Source: a virus (Duplodnaviria; Caudoviricetes). From it: 26,414 nt of DNA. The translations under genes and the position numbers were made by a program. Under the pieces are notes generated by a model. The model was not told where the DNA came from. It made no database searches and saw only the letters and a list, made by a program, of their open reading frames with translations. This document shows, one piece after another, positions 2,007 to 18,155 of the stretch (position 1 is its first letter; each line of letters begins with the position of its first letter). The stretch spans positions 1 through 26,414 of IMG/VR virus record IMGVR_UViG_3300004686_000013; one strand, 5' to 3'.

Positions 2007-2729
2007 TTACCCCGGAAATTCTTGCAACAAAAACGATGTAGCATCTTCTAACATTAAAAACCCAGTATCGTTTTCCAATAGAATACCATCATTTTCTATT
2101 GGTCCGACTTGAGGCCCTGGCAACAATGACATAAAGACATTTTGCCCAAGATTATTAGACCAATTCACTGAATTATCAAGTAAATTGGTCCAATCTGCAT
2201 TTGTTAGACCTGTATCAATAGCCCCGGTTCTTGGAACTTCTGTATTGTCATATGGAAGACCAATTTCATTATCTCCAGGGACTTGAAAAGATTGTCCTGG
2301 CTGATGGTTCCATCCACCCGGTGGCTCACCAGTTTGTTGCGTAACACGTGTATTGTTATTTTCTGTAATACGTATTTGACCCGTTGGAACAGGCAATCCA
2401 GTCCAAAACCAAGCCGAATTTACAGTAGGAGAAACTGTGGGTTGCGGGGCAGATGTAACGCGAGTATTTTGTTCATATTCCTTATAACGCTCAGGTCGAG
2501 CATTCAAGATCGGCATAGGATCTGGCGGAAGAATACGTGGCTTTAATTGAGGCTGGGGGTCGTCAAAACACGTTTCACAAACTAAAATTCTCAAGTTTGC
2601 AAGGTTACGGCCTCTGTAGTCATACTGCCAGCGCAAATCTTTATGATTGTAAAGAAAACCACAACGATCACATATTGCAAATGCAGCGCTGTTATTTGGA
2701 TCAACTTTAGCTCTTCCGTGAGGATACAT
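2007..2729 (-). CDS. Conserved phage protein with N-terminal CxxC..CxxC (putative Zn-binding) domain
   Basis: CDRC...CETC...DPQPQL...DPMPILNARPE; acidic LLE-type repeats at the C-terminus; lies in the morphogenesis operon. Confidence 0.75.
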   Translation of the reverse strand: MYPHGRAKVDPNNSAAFAICDRCGFLYNHKDLRWQYDYRGRNLANLRILVCETCFDDPQPQLKPRILPPDPMPILNARPERYKEYEQNTRVTSAPQPTVSPTVNSAWFWTGLPVPTGQIRITENNNTRVTQQTGEPPGGWNHQPGQSFQVPGDNEIGLPYDNTEVPRTGAIDTGLTNADWTNLLDNSVNWSNNLGQNVFMSLLPGPQVGPIENDGILLENDTGFLMLEDATSFLLQEFPG

Positions 2730-3493
2730 TATTCCACATCCTCCACGTAAGAAAACTTAAACCCACCAACAGTTTTCCTGTTATTTTTCCCTAAACATAG
2801 TTCTATCACTGAACTTTTAGCTACATTATAAACTCTAGCCGCTTCACTCGCAGATGGGTATTGCCTTCCGTCATTTAAACAAACAACCTTTTTGGATAAT
2901 TTTATTGGTCCGTTTGCCCTTCTACCAGCTCCATCAATTCCATTAATTATTCCGATATGACTTTTATTAACGTCTACAATTTTACGGCGTTTTGCGCACT
3001 TAATTTCAATTTCTCTAATAAAAATATTTCTATCCTTTTCTTCAATTTCTTTATCGTAATAAATAAAGTGCAACCCATTCGCTGATCTGTATTTAAGATT
3101 GCAAACATCCGTTATTGAAACGGGTGATAATTTATTTTCAAAAGCCGCTTCTGTCGCACTATTATATATCCTACCTGTTTCCAGGCACATAACATTTTTT
3201 CTATTGTGAGGAATAATACCTACGGTTCCATCCCCACCATCTGTTAAATTAGCTATTTTATATCCACTATCTCTAAATGCCTTTATCCATGCTCTTTCCC
3301 AAAAACATGAAATTTCCCAGTTTGGTAATTCTGCAATCAAAGATATTTTAACACCGTGTTTTTTTACAATGTTTTTATGATATTGAGTTCTGCTGTGATG
3401 ATTTAACTTAAATGCACGATCTTTTTTTTGGCCTATCCCAACATAGAAAGGTTCATGCATATCTTCTTTAAAATGACAATATAAATATGGCAT
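2729..3493 (-). CDS. Free-standing GIY-YIG-like homing endonuclease with two NUMOD1-like DNA-binding repeats
   Basis: YLYCH...FYVGIG...R, conserved E, NLTDGGDG; two repeats VxCLxxGRxYxSAxEAA...SxxxxC; visibly AT-richer than neighbours. Confidence 0.85.
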   Translation of the reverse strand: MPYLYCHFKEDMHEPFYVGIGQKKDRAFKLNHHSRTQYHKNIVKKHGVKISLIAELPNWEISCFWERAWIKAFRDSGYKIANLTDGGDGTVGIIPHNRKNVMCLETGRIYNSATEAAFENKLSPVSITDVCNLKYRSANGLHFIYYDKEIEEKDRNIFIREIEIKCAKRRKIVDVNKSHIGIINGIDGAGRRANGPIKLSKKVVCLNDGRQYPSASEAARVYNVAKSSVIELCLGKNNRKTVGGFKFSYVEDVE

Positions 3494-4847: not shown

Positions 4848-5045
4848 TTAAATATCGCCGCCGTATTTGCGGTGCATCGCTTTCAGCGTTTTAGCTAAAT
4901 TAGCCTTTTTTGCCAAAGCGGGATTTTCAGAGTGAGAAGCTTTTTCCAACTTCCCTGAAGGAATGGTTTTGCTCTCCGGAACATGCAGGGCCTTATGTAA
5001 AGAACCTGGATGCTTTATAGCTTTTTGGATCCATTTCTCAGCCAT
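4848..5045 (-). CDS. Small basic phage protein (KWIQKAIKHPGSLH...), ends RKYGGDI
   Basis: Start moved to ATG 5045, which follows a GGAGAG RBS; Lys-rich, possibly an internal DNA-binding head protein. Confidence 0.75.
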   Translation of the reverse strand: MAEKWIQKAIKHPGSLHKALHVPESKTIPSGKLEKASHSENPALAKKANLAKTLKAMHRKYGGDI

Positions 5046-5057
5046 GACACTCTCCAT

Positions 5058-5081
5058 AAGAAAGAGGCGGCCGAAGCCGCC
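5058..5081 (-). terminator. Intrinsic terminator with cUUCGg tetraloop
   Basis: Minus strand GGCGGC-TTCG-GCCGCC-TCTTTCTT. Confidence 0.8.
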
Positions 5082-5090
5082 CCGATCTGA

Positions 5091-5423
5091 TTAGTCAAGA
5101 CCGTGCTTGGACTGAATGTCCGCGCCTGGACGGGTAGAAGTTTTCTGAGCAGCTTCCCAATCTTGGCTGATTGAGGCACCACCTTCTGCACGACCACCAC
5201 GCTTACGGGGAGCGCGGTCGCAACGAGCCATTGATTTCTCGCCTTCGACTTTGCCGCCCTTTTTGCGCTTCTTGGCATCTTTCATAACATTGCTGTCTTT
5301 ACCTGCGTAAGCCATATCATGCTCACGATCGTCCGCAAATGAGCCCGTAGGATCATTGGGGACATTAGCGGTAGAAGCGCGACCGCCTTCTTTCCGCTCC
5401 ATATGATGTTTCTTGCCTCTCAT
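5091..5423 (-). CDS. Small charged low-complexity protein with four RxxGG motifs
   Basis: RKEGGRA, RKKGGKV, RKRGGRA, RAEGGAS. ATG 5423 preferred over TTG 5429 on RBS spacing. Confidence 0.75.
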   Translation of the reverse strand: MRGKKHHMERKEGGRASTANVPNDPTGSFADDREHDMAYAGKDSNVMKDAKKRKKGGKVEGEKSMARCDRAPRKRGGRAEGGASISQDWEAAQKTSTRPGADIQSKHGLD

Positions 5424-5436
5424 GGCCAATCATCCT

Positions 5437-5943: not shown

Positions 5944-6858
5944 TTACGATGTTGGGAACGATCCGTAGATTGAACGCCAGTTGTAGTATCCGAACGAATA
6001 GCGCTCGTAGCCCTTCACCAACAGGTTGTCTGTCGTGAAGTCTACCTGCATGTCCATTTCGTAAGGGACACGTTCCATATAAACGAGACCTTTAATGTTC
6101 GTCAGTAGGAACCACGCAAAGTTTGACGTCAGGTAATCGTTTACCATGTAGCCTTCTGGCAAGCCGCCGGCCGTGGAAATGATTGCGTTCACGTCGTTGT
6201 TTGCAGTGCCTGGGCGCAGTTCGGTCTTTGTAAGACGAATTGCAACAGGTTCAAGCGTCGGTGGGATGATCAACTTGCGACCACGAGCAAAGATCTTCAG
6301 ACCAGCGATATCGCGGAAGTTCTGACGAATTGCAATCATTGCATTCAACAGAGAAGCTTCGTTAAGATCAACGTCGGTCGTAGGACGGTTTGCAATCGTA
6401 TTGCCGTCAATCGGATGGTTTGTAGCGCAAAGTGATACGCCGTCGCCACCAACTGACGCATTATACGTCGTTGCCGTGTTGAGGATGTTTGCGCCATAGA
6501 TTTCTTTGGTCTGTGAGAAGCTCTCAATCAGACCAAGGTTCGTTGGCGTAAACTGTGTCTTATACAGGTTATCATCAATTGCCTTACGGGTAATGGCATA
6601 GCCAAGACCGATTTCGTAATGCTCTTGATTGTAGACGTAACGCTCGGAAGCGTTGTTGTCAAAGTTTACAGCGCCGCCTTCAGTCTTGATTGCTGCAAGA
6701 CCGAGGTAACGCATTTCTGCTGTGCGCTCAAGAGCAAGGTTAGATTTGCTCTTCTCGAACATTTTGTCCCACTGCGATGGGATCTGAGGGTATTTACCCT
6801 CAACGCCACGGAGACCTGGTAAGAGCAGGTCGCGGATGGCTGAAAGATTAACTGCCAT
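5944..6858 (-). CDS. Major capsid protein (HK97 fold, Mu gpT-like family)
   Basis: 304 aa; LLLPGL...EGGAV.FD...LGYAITRKAIDDNLY...GGDGVSL...HP...KLIIPP.L...ERYSFGYYNWRSIYGS; strong GGAG RBS; follows the scaffold and decoration genes. Confidence 0.92.
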   Translation of the reverse strand: MAVNLSAIRDLLLPGLRGVEGKYPQIPSQWDKMFEKSKSNLALERTAEMRYLGLAAIKTEGGAVNFDNNASERYVYNQEHYEIGLGYAITRKAIDDNLYKTQFTPTNLGLIESFSQTKEIYGANILNTATTYNASVGGDGVSLCATNHPIDGNTIANRPTTDVDLNEASLLNAMIAIRQNFRDIAGLKIFARGRKLIIPPTLEPVAIRLTKTELRPGTANNDVNAIISTAGGLPEGYMVNDYLTSNFAWFLLTNIKGLVYMERVPYEMDMQVDFTTDNLLVKGYERYSFGYYNWRSIYGSFPTS

Positions 6859-7715: not shown

Positions 7716-8279
7716 CTATTCGTCTGATGGAACTCCAATCGGAGAGCGAGACTTATTAAATCTATGAACCTCACGCGGTCCAAGATCAGATCCTCTACCG
7801 CTGCGAAGTTGCTGTTCTTTTGTAAACACCGCTTCTCGTGCTGCACGAGCTTCTTTCATCCTTGCTTCTTCAGTGAGGATAGAAGGGCGCTCCATGAGAA
7901 CTTGGCCTTCAACTTCAATTGTCTCGCCTTTCCAATTACCAGGCATCATACTTGGATATCGGCTTAGCGGGACTGGCTTCCAGCCTTGTCTGTCAAGCTC
8001 AACGATGTAGGAAGATTGTTCTTCTCCCATAACCGTGTGGCACTTCCATTGATAATCCCAACCCGGAGGCGGAGAAGGAGCCCAAAATTTATCTCGTGAG
8101 CCGTCTCCGTCTGGTTGGTTTTGGCGAATTTCCCGAAGACGGGCTTCAGCTCTGGCAACACTGTCCTCAGTAGCGTCTAATGGCTTGCGATCAACAGATG
8201 TGACGTCTAGGGTTTTTTTATAAGCCTTGCCTTCTCTTGTGCGACCATCAATATTGGAAAGTTCTTCAAAACTATTCAT
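7716..8279 (-). CDS. Conserved head-morphogenesis hypothetical protein (187 aa)
   Basis: PPPGWDYQWK...GWKPVP...GQVLMERP motif; lies between the scaffold and capsid genes. Confidence 0.8.
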   Translation of the reverse strand: MNSFEELSNIDGRTREGKAYKKTLDVTSVDRKPLDATEDSVARAEARLREIRQNQPDGDGSRDKFWAPSPPPGWDYQWKCHTVMGEEQSSYIVELDRQGWKPVPLSRYPSMMPGNWKGETIEVEGQVLMERPSILTEEARMKEARAAREAVFTKEQQLRSGRGSDLGPREVHRFNKSRSPIGVPSDE

Positions 8280-9244: not shown

Positions 9245-9661
9245 TCAATAGATAAAATCCGGGTCAGATACCCGCATCCGAACACTGGCGTCGCCTACTA
9301 TTCGACAATCGACAGTGTCATCTTTGGATATTGACTTCTGAAGAGTGTTTAAGGTCACTCGCCAGCCGTCAGAGGGCCTAAAAACGATCCAATCACCTAC
9401 ATTTATGTCCCTAAACTTGTTTCCGTTGTCATCAACGTAGCAAAATGGGCCCATTTTTACGACTAATCCAACTTTTCCTTGGTGAACATCCTCTGTTCGA
9501 GTGCTGTCAGCCAATATTAACCCGGATTTTGTCTTTTCAGGACGTTTGTAAATCGCAACCAGCATGTCGGATCCAAAAACATCCACCCCAGATAAGTCAC
9601 CAACTCGATCCAAAATCGCTTGTTTCGGATCAACTTCATGTAACATCGCTATTGCTGGCAA
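9245..9661 (-). CDS. groES: GroES-like co-chaperonin (Cpn10)
   Basis: EKTKSGLILADS mobile loop, GLVVKMGP, INVGDWIVF. TTG 9661 preferred over GTG 9670 on AGGAG spacing. Confidence 0.88.
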   Translation of the reverse strand: MPAIAMLHEVDPKQAILDRVGDLSGVDVFGSDMLVAIYKRPEKTKSGLILADSTRTEDVHQGKVGLVVKMGPFCYVDDNGNKFRDINVGDWIVFRPSDGWRVTLNTLQKSISKDDTVDCRIVGDASVRMRVSDPDFIY

Positions 9662-9728
9662 TGTCGACACTCCTATTTATCCCAGAACGCGCGTCTGGGG
9701 TCGCTTTCCAAGAGCATCTTGGAAATTT

Positions 9729-10232
9729 CTAAAAACTTCTCTCAAATTGCCCATAGTTTTTTATTGCGGCCAATTGATATGCGATAGAGGCGGCAGCAGG
9801 ACAATCAAATAAACCAAGATGTTTACTTATTTTTCCTATTTTAGCTCGCCACATTCCTGATTGTTTATGCCAATAAACACCTTTAGGAGGCCATGCTCGC
9901 ATTGGACGTTTATTTTGATTTTGTTGAGATCTCGTCGCTAAACGCAAGTTTTCCCATCTATTGTCTAATGGATCACAATTTATGTGGTCTATTTCAGATT
10001 TAGGAAAACTTCCTGTCATATATAGCCATGCTATACGATGGGCCCGATAGGCTTTTCCTAAAATCCAAAGTTGACATCTTCCTTTTGCGTCTAATGTTCC
10101 GGCTTTTTTACCAGCCCACTTAGCATCCCATGCAGGTATTCCATGATTTTTATGGAAAAACCATCCAGTTAGTTGATCATAATATAATATTGATTTTAAA
10201 TATTTTTGCGTGATATTTGATAAATTAGCCAT
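9729..10232 (-). CDS. HNH homing endonuclease with C-terminal AP2-like domain
   Basis: YRAHRIAWLYMTG...IDHINCDPLDNRWENLRLATRSQQNQN; KGVYWHKQSGMWRAKI...LGLFD. Start ATG 10232 follows GGAGA. Confidence 0.92.
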   Translation of the reverse strand: MANLSNITQKYLKSILYYDQLTGWFFHKNHGIPAWDAKWAGKKAGTLDAKGRCQLWILGKAYRAHRIAWLYMTGSFPKSEIDHINCDPLDNRWENLRLATRSQQNQNKRPMRAWPPKGVYWHKQSGMWRAKIGKISKHLGLFDCPAAASIAYQLAAIKNYGQFERSF

Positions 10233-10260
10233 TTGCTTATCTCCAGAAAGCTTGTGGTTA

Positions 10261-10300
10261 AAGGGGTGGAGATGGTGACACATCTCTATCCCTTGTTTTT
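10261..10300 (+). terminator. 14-bp hairpin plus U-tract, antisense to the HNH leader
   Basis: AAGGGGTGGAGATG-GTGACA-CATCTCTATCCCTT-GTTTTT; two G-U pairs form only on the plus strand. Confidence 0.55.
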
Positions 10301-10508
10301 AGCGCCTTTTATCTTCTATTCCCAGGACCTTTTTCTGGGCTTCTTGTGCGGCATTCAGAGCATCTGATATGCCCTTCAAGCGACCTACCCTGTGTCGATA
10401 GTCGTCGAAGCTTTGGGCCTTGCCGTTTGCCAACTCTAGCGTGAGTTGTTCATACAAATCGGCAAGGATTTTCACTAGCTCATCATAGAGCATCAAATCT
10501 AAGTTCAT
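10299..10508 (-). CDS. Small conserved hypothetical protein (69 aa)
   Basis: Helical; 'NGKAQSFDDYRHRVGRLKGI' motif; abuts the upstream stop codon (TAA ATG). Confidence 0.75.
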   Translation of the reverse strand: MNLDLMLYDELVKILADLYEQLTLELANGKAQSFDDYRHRVGRLKGISDALNAAQEAQKKVLGIEDKRR

Positions 10509-11774
10509 TTACCCGCCAGTTTTGCTATTAGGCGTCGGATTTTGTCCTTGCAGATAATTGAGGAGCGCTTGGTTCCCAAATTGGTTCTGCAATGCACTCA
10601 TTCCAGCATTATAAGAAGCAACATAAGGGTCTACTGATCCGCCAACGTCGGGCGTTACTGCTTGGGATTGCATGAATGCGTCACCGGCAGGGCTATTCAT
10701 AATAGCGTTTTCTACGTCTTGGCGTGTGGCCAAACCTTTATTTAACTGATCAGTCCAATATTGCGCCTCTTGTTGGCTTGGATTTCTTCCCACATCAGAT
10801 TGGAATACTTGGTTGATAAAGTTTCCGCTCTGATTGGCGTAGTCTGCCAAAGAAGCTTCGATTTGTCCTTGTGTTGTTGTCCCGGACGTAAGTGCGTCAG
10901 TCCAATATTTTAATCCCTCAGGATCTGGGTCTCTTCCCATATATTGCTGATAGGCAGCATTTAGGAATTGATCCGTCGGCAAATTCTGCGACGAAACACT
11001 TGCGTCGTAGTTTTGGTAATGCCCGGGTAAGTTTTGCGCTGTGCTTGTGTATTTTAATGCCGGAGAAGTAGAGGCCGGCATTTTTGCTAATACGTCTGGC
11101 GGCAGTGTGGACAACGAAGAAGCCGGAACTGTCAAACCGGCAGGCGGTCCAGATGTAGGACCTCCTTGAGCCGTTTGTCCTGCCGGTGGGGCAGGTTGAT
11201 TAGCAGCTTGCTGCGCTTGCATTGCAGCCTGAACTTGCGGTGGAAGAAGATTAGGGTCCATCTGGCCAAATCTGGCTAGTGTATCTCCCGTCATCATCAT
11301 CGAATTTGGCTGATTATACATTGAGCCAAATGCCGCTAGTGGAGCCTGCGCAAATCCTTGAGCCGGGCCTGGAGCGTTAAATGCCGCAAGACCTGCCGCC
11401 TGTTGCTGCTGAGGTGTCCCACCAGATGGGGCAGACGTAGCAGGATTGCTACCGGCTAATATACCACCATCAGCTCTTCTTGCCCTTCCGCCATATCGAC
11501 GGCCTTGCTGAGAAGATCCAGCCCACGACGGAGTTATCCCCGCAGTTGCAGGCTGGTTTTGTGGCTGAGGCGGCTGAGCAACCGGAGCGGGCTGGGAGCT
11601 AACATCCATGCCGTTATCATACATGGCTGATCGCGTCCCAAACCCATCATGGGTCGGAGATTGCTCAAGTGACTTACCCAGGGTTTGATTACCTGCATTC
11701 TGAACCTGATTAGGGTCAGCTGCTTGCGGAGAAGCGGCAAAGCTGTCCTGGGTATTCTGATACTGAGAACCCAT
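10509..11774 (-). CDS. Gln/Pro/Ala-rich virion-associated protein with two DUF4214-like repeats; may be expressed as a -1 frameshift fusion with 11807..12955
   Basis: FLNAAYQQYMGRDPDPEGLKYWTDAL and FINQVFQSDVGRNPSQQEAQYWTDQL; ends KTGG-stop; no clear SD before ATG 11774. Confidence 0.8.
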   Translation of the reverse strand: MGSQYQNTQDSFAASPQAADPNQVQNAGNQTLGKSLEQSPTHDGFGTRSAMYDNGMDVSSQPAPVAQPPQPQNQPATAGITPSWAGSSQQGRRYGGRARRADGGILAGSNPATSAPSGGTPQQQQAAGLAAFNAPGPAQGFAQAPLAAFGSMYNQPNSMMMTGDTLARFGQMDPNLLPPQVQAAMQAQQAANQPAPPAGQTAQGGPTSGPPAGLTVPASSLSTLPPDVLAKMPASTSPALKYTSTAQNLPGHYQNYDASVSSQNLPTDQFLNAAYQQYMGRDPDPEGLKYWTDALTSGTTTQGQIEASLADYANQSGNFINQVFQSDVGRNPSQQEAQYWTDQLNKGLATRQDVENAIMNSPAGDAFMQSQAVTPDVGGSVDPYVASYNAGMSALQNQFGNQALLNYLQGQNPTPNSKTGG

Positions 11775-11806
11775 AAGACCGCCAAAGCCTGTCGTGGCTC
11801 CTCCGC

Positions 11807-12955
11807 CTAGATAAAACCCTTCCGGCCAGCTTTATATGCCGCAAGTTCTTCTTTCTGGAGGCGGCCTTCGCCTGAACCAGCGCCGGCCGTGAGGTCCTGT
11901 GTAGAGCGAACTTTACCACCTCGTTTAAATGGACGGGGTGGCATACCGCCTGGCGCACCCATACCCGGAGCGCCCCCTAATCCCTGTGGCATACCGCCCA
12001 TTGGAGGTGCCGGCGGCATTGCTCCGCCCATTGGTGGGGCTGGTGGCATTCCGCCCATAGGAGGTGCCATAGGGGCGCCACCTGGAGGCATTGGAGGCAT
12101 GCCGCCCGGAGCGCCGCCCACTGGAGGCATGGGGGGGCGTGGCATCCCTCCAGCTGGCATAGGAGGTAAGCCCCCCATTGGATTTGTCTGACCACGGCTA
12201 TCATTGAAATTAATTGTCACGCCACCTTTGGTAGCAGACTTGCCGCCACCTAAAGATGTGCCGCCGCTAAGAGATCCGCCATCAGCGCGCTTTGCACGAC
12301 CACCTTTACGGAGACCTTCCATGCTCTGCTGCTCGTCATGCTTTTTATCAAGAGCGGATTTCTCCCACTTCTCCATCGACATGCCGTGCTTTTTAGCAAG
12401 CTTCTTATCTTCGCGTAGGTCTTCCTTGGAATGTTCCCACTCCATGTGTCCGACCTTGCCACCCTTTTTCATGGCGTATTGGCCTTTGCCAAGATTGCCT
12501 TTGCGATAATCTTCGGGGGAAATCTTATTAGCTTCTCTCTCCGCGTAATTTCGCATAGCCTGCTTATCAGCCTCGGAAGGGCCAGATTGAGATTTCTCGG
12601 ATTTCAAGCCTTTCAAACGCTCCTCAGAACGCATGGCTTCCTCTGGGCTAGGCAACATACCGCCGTCATCACGCTTTTTACGGGAAGCTTTGTCCAAGCG
12701 CTTTAAAGACATGGCGCCCTTAACAGAGCCACCAGCCTTGCGCATGATACGTGGATTGACTTCTTGTGAAAGCTTCGGCTCAGCGAAGATAACGCCAAGG
12801 CCAGCCTGTTCATTGGTGTTCAGGCCCTTCTCGCCATCCCAGCCGTCTTCAGTTTTTTTCTTAGCTGATTTGGCTGCCTTTGAGCCTTTTCCAGCATAAG
12901 TATCAATCTTTTTATCATGGCCTGCTTTGGCCTCTTTAGCATATGGATGTGCCAT
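11807..12955 (-). CDS. Lys-rich / Gly-Met-Pro-rich low-complexity protein with six xxxGG motifs (putative internal virion protein)
   Basis: RKAGGSV, RDDGGML, MKKGGKV, LRKGGRA, RADGGSL, FKRGGKV; GGMPP repeats; C-terminal GAGSGEGRLQK. Confidence 0.8.
   Translation of the reverse strand: MAHPYAKEAKAGHDKKIDTYAGKGSKAAKSAKKKTEDGWDGEKGLNTNEQAGLGVIFAEPKLSQEVNPRIMRKAGGSVKGAMSLKRLDKASRKKRDDGGMLPSPEEAMRSEERLKGLKSEKSQSGPSEADKQAMRNYAEREANKISPEDYRKGNLGKGQYAMKKGGKVGHMEWEHSKEDLREDKKLAKKHGMSMEKWEKSALDKKHDEQQSMEGLRKGGRAKRADGGSLSGGTSLGGGKSATKGGVTINFNDSRGQTNPMGGLPPMPAGGMPRPPMPPVGGAPGGMPPMPPGGAPMAPPMGGMPPAPPMGGAMPPAPPMGGMPQGLGGAPGMGAPGGMPPRPFKRGGKVRSTQDLTAGAGSGEGRLQKEELAAYKAGRKGFI
11813..11819 (-). other. Candidate -1 programmed ribosomal frameshift site G GGU UUU
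   Basis: X XXY YYZ heptamer in the correct phase two codons before the TAG of 11807..12955. The -1 frame is open into 10509..11774. Confidence 0.6.
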
Positions 12956-13090: not shown

Positions 13091-15868
13091 TCAATGTTTT
13101 TTAGCAGCCCTCATATTATCCACGAGATTTGGATAAGGGCGCCCGGCAGCCTTAGCCGCAGCTTTAGCAGATGACTTTTGCTCGCTTGTTAGTGGATCTG
13201 GCTTACCAAGTGACTTAGGACGAGGTTTATCCCACACTGGTCCGCCAGTTTTATATTTCCTAGCCACCGAAAGGGCGTCACTAACAGCCCCGCCTTTATT
13301 CATTTGTCCTGGTGCTAATCCTTGACCGCCAGTTCCAGGGACAGCAGATCCGTCAACAACCATAGGTGATAAATATAAAGACCCAGGATCGGGCGTTCCT
13401 GTGGAAGTTCCTAATGTTCCGGCAGTTCCACTACCAGAAGGCAATCCTGTGTAACCAAGTTGATAATAATCAATTGGAGTGGTTGCTGTTGGACCAGGAA
13501 TATTCGCCGTAGCAAGCGTTGATCCAGCTCCAGAAGATGGAGCAACGCCTGTTCCAATGCCAGATCCCACTCCAACAGGAACGCCTATTGAAGCCCCAGC
13601 GCCAGAATTAACACCAACATTACCGCCGGCACCTGTGCCTGCTAATTGTTGACCTAAATTAGTTCCTGGCTGTGTGCCGCCGGTAATAGTTCCGCTACCA
13701 ACTGAAGTGCCAGTTCCCGTAGTAGGAAGTGTCCCAGCATATGGGACATATTGTCCTTGAGCATTTTTTGTAAATTGATAATTTGCTAACTGGCTTCTTG
13801 AAATGATTGTTGACGGATCCTGATAAAATGGACCGGGGGTAGCATTATCAGCCAAAACATTTTGATAACTAGCGTCGTCCAAAACTTTTACAGGTTTACC
13901 ATTAATCATTACAGTCGACATATACGGAATAGTATTTCCTTGAACAGTATTGGATGGAATAGTTTGCGTCTGCGGTGGAGGAGTTATTTGGTAAGGTTGA
14001 TAACTGCTTCCCTGAGACGTTGCATACTGTTTACCTTCATCAGATTGGGGCAAATATTTAGCCAATACATCTTGTGTTACTTGCCCTGTTCCTAATTGGC
14101 CAGTCCAATATTGCTGTTCTGCTGAAGTTGGGGCGCGACCAAAATCCTGTTGATACGCATCATTTAAAAAAGAAGAGTTTTTAAAATATTGTTGTGCAGG
14201 GTCGCTTCCTGCAAATGCAACCTCCACTGATTGAGGCGTTGCTGTTCCTGCACGTAATTGATCTGTCCAATATTTAACACCATTTGGATCAGGAGGTGTG
14301 CCAAGATCGTTTTTATATAGTTTATTAATAAAATCAGTGTAATCAGATGGAATTAATTTAGCTGGATCGGCCGCTACCGCCTTTAGGTTGTCAGGAATAT
14401 TATAATCAACAAAAGATTTACCATAATCACCTTTCGAGGCATTTGGTGCTATTTGTTGAAGCTGTTGTTGTATTCCTTCAGCATATCCCAATCTTTTTTG
14501 GAATGTGCTTTTCGCGTCTTGCGCCGCTGAACTATTAGAGGAAATATTCCCTCGGCTATTTATAAACGCCCCAGGGCTTTCTACTGCCAATGCTCCGGCC
14601 ACAGCAGATTGGAGATCTGGAGCATAGTTCATATAATCATTAACAGATGAAGGATTAGCGAGATCGTATGATGATCCTAAATTTCCTGTAGTATAATTTA
14701 CCCAAAACGATGTTTGAGCTGCTGGATCGGATGGACTTAAATTATTAGCTTTTGCATATTTTTGAAAGGCAGTATTCATTGGGCCAGTAAATTGAAACGC
14801 ACCATAACCACCGCCACCACCAGTTTGCGGCTGATTAAAGTTTAAATAATAGTTTCCATCAGAATTGGCCTTGGATGATTGTCCTTCAGTAGCAGCATTT
14901 GCAGCATAAGCAATGGCCGCATTGTAGGACATCCCTTGGTTCATCAAGTTTAAGGCCAAATTAGTGGCATTTGTCCAATCATATTTTTTAGGAATGTCTG
15001 CCGTCGATGATTGAATATTTTTAGGATCAGACAACCATTGGACTGAATTTTGAGCGCCTGAAGATAAATTTGTCCACCCTAAATTATAGCCCGTCCTAGA
15101 TGTGTCACCAACATATTGACTAGGATCTGTTGTCCCGCCCGATAACCCAGATGTGCTTTGTCCACCGGTAGCACGATATTTTCGGGCTACTTCCAAAGCC
15201 CCACCATCAGAACACTTCCACTTTCTCAAAGATTTATTAATCCGGCTATCTGGATCATTGGCTGTCTCAGAGCTGGTAAGCTTAGCTTTCATGCCTTTCA
15301 TACGAGCGCAGAAACTATCTTTACGGGATCCGCCTTCCGGCTGAGGACGCTTAATGTCATGACCCTCGGAACGGAGAGAAGCTCGACCCTTTTCGTTCAA
15401 CCCGCCCTCTGGGTTTTTGCCCTCAGACCTTTGCCAAGCCGGTGTCTTAGCCATCTTATTATTCCCTCGTGCCGATCCGCCAGTAGCCATTCCGGCAGGC
15501 TTAGGCCAATCTTGCTCTGGCGACCATGCAGGATATTTGTCTTTACCAAGTTCAAAGAAGGGAGACTTTCCTTCTGCTTCACGGCGTTTTGCAGCTTCAT
15601 AAGCCCTATTATCAGTATCTTGTGGTGGGCTTCTATGAAGTCTTTCCGCCATTAATACAGCTGCCTTGTCGGCATCGCTTATATTTTCATAAATAGACGG
15701 ATATTGGATTTCTCTATCTGAAGAATATTCAGAAACTATTCCAGAGTTGTCTAAATTTTTAATTGGACCGAGAAAACCAATATCTTTTGATTTAAGCGCA
15801 TCTAATTTATCTGTTTCTGGGTTGTATCTTTGCCCCCATGGATGTCGAAGAGGAAGTGTCTTAGCCAT
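13091..15868 (-). CDS. Multi-module virion protein: N-terminal module, DUF6321-like basic module, phage tail lysozyme-like domain, two DUF4214-like repeats, Gly/Thr linker, basic C-terminal module
   Basis: KTPAWQRSEGKNPEGGLN...SFCARM...SLRKWKC; GMSYNAAIAYAANAATE...GYGAFQFTG...AQTSF...RLGYA; modules separated by xxxGG motifs. Start ATG 15868 follows GGAGAG. Confidence 0.8.
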   Translation of the reverse strand: MAKTLPLRHPWGQRYNPETDKLDALKSKDIGFLGPIKNLDNSGIVSEYSSDREIQYPSIYENISDADKAAVLMAERLHRSPPQDTDNRAYEAAKRREAEGKSPFFELGKDKYPAWSPEQDWPKPAGMATGGSARGNNKMAKTPAWQRSEGKNPEGGLNEKGRASLRSEGHDIKRPQPEGGSRKDSFCARMKGMKAKLTSSETANDPDSRINKSLRKWKCSDGGALEVARKYRATGGQSTSGLSGGTTDPSQYVGDTSRTGYNLGWTNLSSGAQNSVQWLSDPKNIQSSTADIPKKYDWTNATNLALNLMNQGMSYNAAIAYAANAATEGQSSKANSDGNYYLNFNQPQTGGGGGYGAFQFTGPMNTAFQKYAKANNLSPSDPAAQTSFWVNYTTGNLGSSYDLANPSSVNDYMNYAPDLQSAVAGALAVESPGAFINSRGNISSNSSAAQDAKSTFQKRLGYAEGIQQQLQQIAPNASKGDYGKSFVDYNIPDNLKAVAADPAKLIPSDYTDFINKLYKNDLGTPPDPNGVKYWTDQLRAGTATPQSVEVAFAGSDPAQQYFKNSSFLNDAYQQDFGRAPTSAEQQYWTGQLGTGQVTQDVLAKYLPQSDEGKQYATSQGSSYQPYQITPPPQTQTIPSNTVQGNTIPYMSTVMINGKPVKVLDDASYQNVLADNATPGPFYQDPSTIISRSQLANYQFTKNAQGQYVPYAGTLPTTGTGTSVGSGTITGGTQPGTNLGQQLAGTGAGGNVGVNSGAGASIGVPVGVGSGIGTGVAPSSGAGSTLATANIPGPTATTPIDYYQLGYTGLPSGSGTAGTLGTSTGTPDPGSLYLSPMVVDGSAVPGTGGQGLAPGQMNKGGAVSDALSVARKYKTGGPVWDKPRPKSLGKPDPLTSEQKSSAKAAAKAAGRPYPNLVDNMRAAKKH

Positions 15869-15869
15869 C

Positions 15870-18155
15870 CTACTCTCCATCTTCCGCAGTTGGCATTCCC
15901 ATCGGCTGCGACATCAAATTAAATATACGATCCTTATGCTTCTCATTGGCGTCATGACGATGTTGTTCCGTCATCTGGCCATGTTGAGCAAGAAGATCCT
16001 TATCCTTGTTTTTCTCGTCTTGGCGGAGCTTGTCAGCATGGACCATTGCAGTTTGCTGAAGCTTCATCGCTTCTAATTGCAATTTACCTTTGCGGTCCTC
16101 AGCATGGTTCTGGGCATCCGTAAACGCCTTCATCTGATCAGTCTTGATCTTCTGAACATTTGCCTCAGTAACCATCGCCTTCGTCTGATTGTCGACCTGA
16201 TTAGACTGGGCCTTTATTTGAACCTCGGCCTGTTTTGCCTGAGCCGTTATCATCTTGGCCTGGGCTTCCATCATCAGTGCAGGATCTTGTTGCGGGCCTT
16301 GTGGTGGTTGTTTACTCCACAGGCTGTCAATATCCTCAATATCTGTCATCTCAAGAATACGACGATCGACTTCCTGCATGTCGTAAAGTTGTGGGTTCTG
16401 AGCGGCAAGTTGTTTGAGTGCAATCGCCTTCTGGATCCTTAATGTCTGAGAAGAACAATTTGGATCAGCCTTCGGGACAATATCGTAATTGTCTAAGGCT
16501 TGCTGGAGTAACTCAGCATCTTTCTGGAACCCTGGATTTCTATTAGATCTCCAAAGGCTCTCCGGATCTCTACGGAACAATTCCTTGAGTAATGAGAATT
16601 CCTTGCCCTGTGCCTGATGCATTCTCTTATGAACGGCATTCAGGACTTTTGTGGCCTGCTCAATCATCGCAATGGTAGATCCTACGGGAATATCCTGCCT
16701 TCCCTCTCCTACGGCCATTTCTGCCGTGCCACCAACACGCTGGGCAGTCTGTTCCACATTCTGGATCATTTGCATAAAGCCGCTGGATATATCCCGATAT
16801 GGAAGCGGGAGAAACGCCTCCTTTAAAGGAACGCCATCGACGTCTAATGGCGCCACTTGTCCTGGCCCAACCCGGATCGTGGTCGTTTGCTGGCGGCCGG
16901 ATGATCGAGCCATAACGCCACCCGGAAAATTAGCCAGCATGCCATTGTCAAGAGCAATTCGCCAAGCCGCTGTAAGAGCGCGATTAGCATTACCAAGAAT
17001 ATGCAAAAGACCGAGGTTAAGACCGGGGAACGACGGAACAAATACATACTCAACGAAGACTTCTTTTCGTGTATAATTTTCATCGCCCTCTTCCCACCAA
17101 CGGCGGATTTCGAGGACTTGCCTGCTGTCCTTGTCTAACGTCACACGATAAGGAAGGGGCAACCCGGTGGCTTCGCCATCTTCTTTATGCTCAAAACCAC
17201 GCAGATCTAACTCACAATAACACTCGTAAATTTCTCTATCGACCTCTCGGTGTTCCATCAAGCTCTTCGGCTCAACACCTGAGATGTTTGCCAGTTCAAT
17301 GTCAACAACATTGCCTAGCGCAAAATTTGTGGAAGTAAGTGCGACGTCTCTCCAAATGCCGGCAAGCTGCATTCTTCTTACGTCTGAAGGCTTCATCTTA
17401 CTACGATGAGTAACCCTGGCGGCCGCTTCAATAGCTACGGCACCTTCGGAAAGGATCAAATCCTTACGGTCAATTGTCTCTGATACAGGACGACGCTTCA
17501 AAGGATGATAATAAACCTTCTTGTATGCCTCTCCACCCAATCCAAGCGAAAAGAACATACGATCAGTATCGGGATAATATTCAGGAGCCCCAGACGTCAG
17601 ATAATGGTTCATGTCTGTCTCAAGGGCGTTTGCCGCTTGATCGAGCTGCTTTATCTGATCACCTTCATTCGAGACCTTCACCGGTCCATCAGCCGGCAAC
17701 AATTCGCCGCGGGCATTTGCCTGGAACCTTAGGACAGCTTCCAATAACAACGGATGCTTAACGACCGAGATGCCCTCGTCATTTGGTTCTGATCTTGGCT
17801 CTTCGAGCTTAATGCCTAGGAGTTCAATTCCCTTGGCGACGTCTTCTAATCTCTGATCCTGACGCGTGCGATCGTCATTGATCAATCTCAAAAGCTCATC
17901 GGCAACGCCAGTGAGAACACCTATCTCGACATGCATCGCCAAATTGGCATCATGATCCTTGCTATCTTCGCTGGGCGCCTGTGGCAATCCGCCAAAGTTA
18001 ATCTGCACCCCGCCATCGGTAAGATCAATTTGAATGACTTGATCGCCCGGCTTTGCCTTTTGCTCAGGTGGCGTGAGGTCTACCTGCTCAGGCTTTTCCT
18101 GCGGCATTCCAGGAGTAGGAACCTGCCGTAAGTTCATCGGGGCTACATTGGCCAT
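15870..18155 (-). CDS. Portal protein
   Basis: 761 aa downstream of TerL; HPLLLEAVLRFQANARGELLPADGPVK, YKKVYY, LPYRVT, GLLHILG, AVHKRMH; coiled-coil C-terminus as in P22-like portals. Confidence 0.9.
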   Translation of the reverse strand: MANVAPMNLRQVPTPGMPQEKPEQVDLTPPEQKAKPGDQVIQIDLTDGGVQINFGGLPQAPSEDSKDHDANLAMHVEIGVLTGVADELLRLINDDRTRQDQRLEDVAKGIELLGIKLEEPRSEPNDEGISVVKHPLLLEAVLRFQANARGELLPADGPVKVSNEGDQIKQLDQAANALETDMNHYLTSGAPEYYPDTDRMFFSLGLGGEAYKKVYYHPLKRRPVSETIDRKDLILSEGAVAIEAAARVTHRSKMKPSDVRRMQLAGIWRDVALTSTNFALGNVVDIELANISGVEPKSLMEHREVDREIYECYCELDLRGFEHKEDGEATGLPLPYRVTLDKDSRQVLEIRRWWEEGDENYTRKEVFVEYVFVPSFPGLNLGLLHILGNANRALTAAWRIALDNGMLANFPGGVMARSSGRQQTTTIRVGPGQVAPLDVDGVPLKEAFLPLPYRDISSGFMQMIQNVEQTAQRVGGTAEMAVGEGRQDIPVGSTIAMIEQATKVLNAVHKRMHQAQGKEFSLLKELFRRDPESLWRSNRNPGFQKDAELLQQALDNYDIVPKADPNCSSQTLRIQKAIALKQLAAQNPQLYDMQEVDRRILEMTDIEDIDSLWSKQPPQGPQQDPALMMEAQAKMITAQAKQAEVQIKAQSNQVDNQTKAMVTEANVQKIKTDQMKAFTDAQNHAEDRKGKLQLEAMKLQQTAMVHADKLRQDEKNKDKDLLAQHGQMTEQHRHDANEKHKDRIFNLMSQPMGMPTAEDGE

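Follow-up and report, generated by a model that had tools for sequence, protein, structure and literature searches.

A conserved slippery site probably extends a Gly-Gly-linked head-module protein of podovirus-like phages by programmed -1 frameshifting

Introduction

Are two adjacent open reading frames (ORFs) in the head module of an uncultured phage two separate genes, or one gene followed by an extension that is reached mainly by ribosomes that change frame? The locus lies on IMGVR_UViG_3300004686_000013, a 26.4-kb fragment (26,414 nucleotides, nt) of a podovirus-like member of the Caudoviricetes represented in freshwater metagenome runs; this whole stretch is called the window below. An ORF of 382 amino acids (aa) on its minus strand (12955..11807) terminates AAG GGT TTT ATC TAG, and an earlier note, made from the letters of the window without database searches, had read this end as a site of -1 frameshifting that fuses the ORF to the next one downstream. 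Comparison with relatives makes a programmed -1 frameshift at the end of the 382-aa gene very likely. The fuller proposal, that the shift adds a module to a head-associated protein, is probable.

A phased heptamer and an open -1 frame

The elements at the junction are the following.

11807..12955, minus strand: 0-frame gene, 382 aa; basic, Gly/Pro/Met-rich, with 7 basic-Gly-Gly motifs
11813..11819, minus strand: slippery heptamer G GGU UUU (X XXY YYZ), at -10, i.e. 10 nt before TAG
11807..11809, minus strand: 0-frame stop codon TAG, one codon past the heptamer; TAG in all 11 loci that share the site (see below)
10509..11813, minus strand: -1 frame extension, 434 aa from the shift; annotated as 421 aa from ATG 11774

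The heptamer is in the correct phase on the minus strand, and the -1 frame is open for 7 codons upstream of TAG and for 433 codons downstream, into ORF 11774..10509. Slippage would yield a product of 381 + 434 = 815 aa in which the post-shift residues are Tyr-Leu-Gly-Gly, so the overlap and fusion that had been described are borne out. The 434-aa extension contains two more basic-Gly-Gly motifs and two DUF4214 repeats, and it has a Gly-Gly terminus. The heptamer itself is not rare, with five GGGTTTY in the window versus 7.9 expected; its significance lies in its conservation.

Conservation of the slip site among relatives

Related loci were gathered via the upstream protein, via its C-terminal motif and, independently of the site, via GroES. 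Among 153 distinct homologous gene ends, 11 encode [KR]GFx-stop, and in every one of these 11 loci G GGT TTY stands exactly 10 nt ahead of TAG and the -1 frame stays open for 69-433 codons, which is the conserved arrangement that the earlier note proposed to look for in homologues. Other heptamers occur at five further gene ends of the 153, none in such an arrangement. The first G of the heptamer is retained whether the preceding codon is AAG, CGG or AGG, that is, across a Lys/Arg change, and the adjacent invariant motif shows synonymous variation in 11 of 12 codons. In codon alignments of three genes from the 11 loci, the slip site alone among 26 invariant-Gly columns is invariantly GGT, a codon that makes up 17-36% of Gly codons in these ORFs; likewise, just two of 30 Lys/Arg columns end in G in all 11, and one of them is the slip site.

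In a GroES tree of 138 rows (a quick version with many open forks), the slip-site loci fall in three supported subclades within one 13-row clade, and those outside the window's own subclade have GroES proteins 67-70% identical to the window's. The element is thus clade-specific and old enough for synonymous turnover around it.

At the protein level, the set of the best 120 homologues, which counts the query, has 38 members that terminate in [KR]G[FY]x-stop, and not one of the 120 continues in frame through the Gly-Gly. Searches with extension residues 1-130 returned no longer in-frame fused proteins, which is weak evidence. Two pattern scans of viral contigs picked out 17 and 19 stretches, of which 5 and 8 were homologues, all on contigs also reached by the protein searches; the remaining stretches were chance matches. 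No second conserved end-of-gene heptamer was found among 2230 ORF ends in the family loci, and the other heptamers picked up in that scan belonged to wrong-frame ORFs or plain gene overlaps.

Coding constraint and types of extension

The extensions are of two types: nine loci encode 70-71 aa with a terminal Gly-Gly motif, and two encode 331 and 434 aa with DUF4214. The types do not align beyond chance (score 27). What follows the slip site is therefore a swappable extension. Synonymous and non-synonymous pairwise differences were counted in the eight ungapped loci of the nine short ones (L163, which has a one-codon deletion, was left out). Over codons 1-21 the -1 frame shows 149 synonymous and 152 non-synonymous differences, as against 30/293 and 28/263 in the other frames, and over the entire short extension it shows 585/495. 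Variable columns are distributed 8/8/15 over the codon positions of 19 codons. This is the variation expected of a coding -1 frame, and it begins at the shift point, ahead of any start codon. Within 67 codons after TAG the -1 frame has no stop in any of the 11 loci, and the 0 frame has two or three in ten; in the window the 0 frame runs without a further stop for these 67 codons.

Across the 11 loci, the first start codon in the -1 frame stands at codon 14, 13, 5, 5, 5, 5, 7, 10, 22, 22 and 7. Two of them, L159 and L160, thus have 21 conserved codons ahead of the first ATG, and these would be readable only by ribosomes entering from upstream. For the window's ATG 11774, the sole Shine-Dalgarno (SD) match is GGCGGU, 3 nt upstream. 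The remark that this start lacks a clear SD carries little weight, because SD matches are generally weak in this phage, several of whose evident genes do no better.

The DUF4214 repeats of the extension are homologous to those of a 929-aa protein encoded immediately upstream of the 382-aa gene, and a search of PDB sequences with the DUF4214 part returned no match. DUF4214 is found in a secreted O-antigen-binding protein (10.64898/2026.09.02.748959), a hint that the cargo carried by the extension may bind cell surfaces.

Predicted RNA structure downstream of the site

The small hairpin that had been noted after the slip site is seen only when 70 nt are folded; with at least 93 nt it is displaced by a 10-bp stem, so it is not the stimulator with the best support. 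In its place, we describe a conserved predicted stem, P1, of 10-11 bp with compensatory changes. P1 begins 5-6 nt past the heptamer and is predicted in all 11 loci with pair probabilities mostly at least 0.87; 3' stimulatory structures typically begin about 5-9 nt downstream. Its arms in the window are as follows.

11797..11806, minus strand: P1 5' arm, beginning 6 nt past the heptamer and also encoding the -1-frame Gly-Gly
11726..11735, minus strand: P1 3' arm; pair probabilities 0.98

The 93-nt fold of the window pairs 11806-11797 with 11735-11726 (z -3.29), and ATG 11774 lies in an interrupted inner stem-loop enclosed by P1. L221 has the same architecture with a different inner sequence. 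The 5' arm is shared by the nine short loci, where its predicted partner lies about 170 nt downstream and the stem closes a branched domain over nearly the entire extension; the 3' partner in the window and L221 is a different one.

Across the nine short loci 93.9% of P1 cells pair, with two-sided change in two of 11 pairs; this was matched by 2 of 500 shuffles, a control that takes no account of relatedness. An inner hairpin also covaries, and in L151 both compensating P1 changes are synonymous in the -1 frame. The window's 3' partner arm was matched by 5 of 1000 codon shuffles and 6 of 1000 synonymous resamplings, and codon shuffles were beaten (32/1000 or better) in eight of the nine short loci. 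No Rfam family matches the structured element, and an RNA model of the short extension matches only its own group (L008, L070) and not the window.

Genome context and the Gly-Gly motif system

The minus-strand gene order is terminase, portal, 929-aa protein, 382-aa ORF, 421-aa ORF, 69-aa gene, HNH gene, GroES, a 330-aa scaffold-like gene, two unknowns and the major capsid protein. The relevant neighbours are listed here.

15870..18155, minus strand: portal protein (PHROG 1216)
13091..15880, minus strand: 929-aa protein, the upstream neighbour; basic-Gly-Gly motifs, DUF6321, a phage tail lysozyme domain and DUF4214 repeats
10299..10508, minus strand: conserved 69-aa gene, its ATG immediately after the extension's stop
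9245..9670, minus strand: co-chaperonin GroES, given as context and as the independent marker for the tree
5944..6858, minus strand: major capsid protein, 41% identical to that of pelagiphage HTVC023P and 80% to that of MW202675

The suspected setting outside the usual tail-chaperone and capsid contexts holds: the gene lies between portal and GroES, its product matches no chaperone family, and the capsid gene is elsewhere. The 382-aa protein matched no Pfam family and no PHROG family, and Atlas searches named none; it is predicted to be mostly unstructured (Atlas model, predicted template modelling score 0.17, predicted local distance difference test (pLDDT) 0.44). Among prokaryote genomes there was one weak match, of 31 residues. 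The protein is probably head-associated, judging from its gene position and the neighbour's lysozyme domain.

Basic-Gly-Gly motifs are concentrated in the proteins of 929, 382 and 112 aa and in the extension, with few in the portal, GroES, scaffold and capsid proteins. The shift rebuilds the register of x-[RK]-x-G-[FY]-x-x-G-G, a form taken in frame by 25 distinct contexts in 235 motif-rich family ORFs. Small basic proteins encoded downstream of the capsid gene (window 4848-5429) share the motifs, as do HTVC023P gp30, gp32 and gp43 (L298), the products of small genes around the portal. The motif system is thus family-wide and extends to a cultured phage.

The Gly-Gly linkers may be protease cleavage sites, by analogy with viral proteases that cut at Gly-Gly. 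No protease family was recognized among the 25 window proteins scanned. A conserved 187-aa gene (window 7716-8279) was folded as a protease candidate (pLDDT 75); in the model a long helix comes after a small alpha/beta core, with pLDDT near 90 for residues 70-160, and the protein has no invariant Cys, His or Ser, no Pfam match and no known family.

The junction ahead of the 69-aa gene is built differently in relatives without the shift. In L089, L109, L118, L130, L144, L238, L248, L261, L275 and others, a spacer of about 100 nt before this gene contains two strong hairpins, the second with a C-rich loop that is complementary, with covariation, to a downstream G-rich SD-like stretch. This hairpin likely forms an H-type pseudoknot that would regulate the 69-aa/GroES block; the spacer structure had no Rfam match in L078 or L089. 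A third class, L324, L331 and L335, whose proteins end Asn-Tyr, has intrinsic-terminator-like hairpins with U runs, and no slip site was found in the Asn-Tyr-stop homologues.

A proposed mechanism and its alternatives

We propose that most ribosomes would terminate at TAG and that a minority would slip back one base to make the longer form, 815 aa in the window. The 10-11 bp stem would pause the ribosome with tRNA-Gly and tRNA-Phe on GGU UUY and allow them to re-pair to GGG UUU. The shift would fall inside the family's module linker, R-x-G-[FY]-x-x-G-G, making the extension one more module, added at a sub-stoichiometric level to a head-associated protein of Gly-Gly-linked modules; shifted ribosomes would then terminate at the start of the 69-aa gene. 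Motifs of the form R_RR.U_UU.Y are shift-prone in E. coli, and low-efficiency shift motifs are used biologically (PMC4066793). As for the purpose of the shift, module dosing is the account we lean towards, by a narrow margin over all others together.

Of the features associated with -1 frameshift sites, the locus has a phased heptamer in an overlap, nucleotide conservation beyond what the protein needs and a predicted 3' structure. Several observations weigh against the frameshift or its interpretation as module addition. The upstream SD-like stimulator, which is optional in bacteria, was not found in conserved form; the best duplexes range from -0.3 to -6.4 kcal/mol at variable positions. G_GG.U_UU.Y lies outside the most efficient E. 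coli motifs (PMC4066793), and since motifs of low efficiency are nevertheless used, a minority product is expected. The 11 loci share ancestry and amount to about three lineages rather than 11 independent trials. Two loci of the same 13-row clade, L234 and L002, have neither site nor extension, which indicates that the element is dispensable. Five homologues known as proteins only (P0104, P0108, P0112, P0132 and P0106) end differently, with Asn or Ser replacing Gly in four and three extra residues in one; the Lys-Asn-Phe variants could encode the alternative heptamer A AAT TTY. The stem is not uniformly supported: z is only -1.50 in L221, the L151 stem does not rise above codon shuffles (273/1000), and the short-group stem exceeds synonymous resampling in just one of nine loci, the partner arm being already specified by the encoded residues. 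L151 and L163 have usable SD-ATG pairs at their seventh codon, which, together with the weak SDs throughout the phage, leaves room for some independent initiation. Finally, the junction does fit the family linker, a resemblance to the di-Gly motif having been noted earlier, but the fit is moderate: among family GG contexts its score falls at the 62nd-77th percentile, a value attained by about 3% of random 7-mers, and conservation of the Gly-Gly codons is not independent evidence for a protein motif because these codons are the P1 5' arm.

Among the alternatives, the one we take most seriously, while still considering it unlikely, accepts the frameshift and holds that it was selected to meter the coupled 69-aa gene and GroES/scaffold block, the peptide being secondary and the cassette replacing the attenuating RNA elements of relatives. 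In every one of the 11 loci, the start of the 69-aa gene either overlaps the extension's stop or directly adjoins it, so that the two are likely translationally coupled; relatives without the shift have strong hairpins across about 100 nt at the junction (100 of 108 spacers with z < -2), often with a loop complementary to G-rich SD-like sequence downstream (in a crude test, p <= 0.05 for 53 of 103); the L324, L331 and L335 junctions have their terminator-like hairpins and U runs; and the 70-aa extension is predicted to be nearly all one folded RNA. The junction therefore looks like a family-wide step-down point, and the frameshift could also meter the downstream gene. Metering as the principal function, however, does not account for the protein-level constraint along the whole extension or for its expansion to 331-434 aa with DUF4214 in two loci, and the short group has its own SD-like AAAGGUGG ahead of the 69-aa gene. 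L234 couples this gene directly to the 0-frame stop of the orthologue, without any extension.

The remaining alternatives deny the frameshift. That the locus is simply two genes, with translation of the downstream ORF beginning at an ATG of its own, whether by reinitiation or independently, and the heptamer a relic of a single-base gene split, seems to us quite improbable. An ATG does lie within 5-22 codons in every locus, SDs are weak phage-wide while L151 has a good one, and the linker motif suggests that both parts were formerly continuous. Yet the start position is not conserved, L159 and L160 have their 21 conserved codons ahead of it, the codon-5 ATG is predicted to be fully paired within P1, and no in-frame fused form was found among the homologues searched; nor would a relic retain the rare GGT codon and the G at the third position of the preceding codon across Lys/Arg changes while 11 of 12 neighbouring codons vary. 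We give very little credence to the idea that the conserved element is a structured RNA of another role (stop-codon readthrough, processing or mRNA stabilization) beside an incidentally open -1 frame. It would agree with the onset of P1 at TAG itself and with the stop-free 0 frame of the window, but the 0-frame stops in the other 10 loci contrast with an unbroken -1 frame in all 11, no Rfam family matches, the heptamer is left unexplained, and the compensatory changes of L151 fall on synonymous -1-frame positions. Least credible of all are errors of sequencing or assembly and polymerase slippage on the run of T. The site does include a short homopolymer, and the comparison used assembled contigs rather than raw reads. 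Nevertheless, contigs from five of eight runs (X1, X2, X3, X5 and X7, of which X1, X2 and X3 may be the source sample) span the slip site with 0 gaps and 0 mismatches, those from X6, X8 and X11 not extending across it; an indel in the T run, the error against which a check had been advised, did not appear. The same phase recurs in ten other loci from other samples, and the run is of only 3-4 T, whereas polymerase slippage tracts are typically far longer.

Returning to the programmed frameshift, a bolder version of it can be offered tentatively and with well under even confidence. The junction may be a reusable recoding cassette for head cargo, in which slippery site, stem 5' arm and a Gly-Gly linker for joining and cutting modules are combined in one RNA. 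Swapped payloads, either the 70-aa peptide or the DUF4214 surface-binding repeats, would each bring a new 3' arm, and the shift would dose both a cleavable module and the coupled downstream gene, replacing the terminator or SD-hiding pseudoknot of relatives.

Comparison with known systems

According to the review PMC5009743, the morphogenesis genes of tailed phages use -1 frameshifting for tail chaperones and for extensions of capsid or tail proteins, and in the SEA-PHAGES set annotated frameshifts are almost all in tail chaperones (PMC10885494). Extensions of capsid or tail proteins, including Ig-like ones, are made by -1 shifts in T7/T3 gene 10A/10B, Lactobacillus phage A2 and Listeria phages, and the T7 shift site is of a related G-and-U type (X_XX = G_GU; PMC5009743). 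The present case resembles these in its position near the end of a morphogenesis gene, in the C-terminal addition to a fraction of molecules and in an extension that differs between related phages. It differs in that the 0-frame gene encodes a low-complexity Gly-Gly-linked protein between portal and GroES rather than a capsid or tail subunit, the extension is a 70-aa peptide or DUF4214 rather than Ig-like, and the long-range stem closes a branched domain with onset 5-6 nt downstream.

With the tail assembly chaperone G/GT of lambda and most long-tailed phages it shares a clade-conserved X XXY YYZ at the end of ORF1, a -1 overlap and, probably, low efficiency and a ratio-setting role. Unlike G/GT, it lies in the head module of a podovirus-like genome and not between major tail and tape measure genes, has no chaperone family match and is not universal in its family (11 of 153 gene ends). 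IS3/IS911 and csoS2 are likewise bacterial -1 shifts with complex 3' RNA structure, a three-way junction in IS911 and a complex stem-loop without an SD in csoS2, whose carboxysome protein CsoS2 is made in two lengths for a capsid-like compartment (PMC5009743, PMC4066793). Here, by contrast, the heptamer is not the usual A_AAA_AAG, it is the longer product that needs the shift, the closing stem reaches across as much as about 180 nt and the context is a phage head.

Polyvalent proteins are variable multi-module proteins with 2-15 effector domains per chain that are encoded beside portal or terminase; packaging has been proposed for them (Iyer et al. 2017, PMC5512222). The genomic context fits. 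The 929-aa neighbour carries lysozyme, DUF6321 and DUF4214, and L234's neighbour has a sub-threshold ART-PolyVal match; the 382-aa protein and its extension, unlike polyvalent proteins, have no enzyme domain. The main text of that paper contains no mention of 'frameshift' or 'glycine'.

HTVC023P-type pelagiphages and MW202675 share the order of portal, small Gly-Gly-motif genes, a gene of about 67 aa, GroES, a scaffold-like gene, two unknowns and capsid. The MW202675 orthologue lacks the slippery site, and HTVC023P has no large orthologue at that position and a capsid protein of just 41% identity. The link of the window to this group rests on head-module synteny and that capsid identity, read from a 26-kb fragment; phages of the HTVC023P type have 13 core genes, including DNA polymerase and helicases (PMC9599517), and the main text of the genome paper does not contain 'frameshift'.

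No earlier report of this element, or of phage frameshifting in such a setting, was found in a literature search whose coverage excluded subscription journals and supplements. If correct, the proposal adds a third setting for phage -1 shifts, a Gly-Gly-linked head-module protein, in a widespread, uncultured lineage related to abundant pelagiphages. The combination of a heptamer of middling bacterial efficiency and a predicted stimulator of unusual size, whose closing stem bridges about 80 or 180 nt, would also make it a test case for bacterial frameshift stimulation. Standard annotation treats the extension as a separate gene and would give it the wrong start, and the frameshift offers an entry point to the unexplained Gly-Gly module system of these phages.

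Other features of the window

Two homing-endonuclease-like genes lie within the morphogenesis block, one HNH/AP2 (9729-10283) and one NUMOD-like (2729-3493); the HNH gene is missing between the 69-aa gene and GroES in loci L008, L064 and L234. Positions 1-1500 of the window encode, on the minus strand, Gly-Pro-Thr collagen-like repeats that probably belong to a tail fibre truncated by the contig end.

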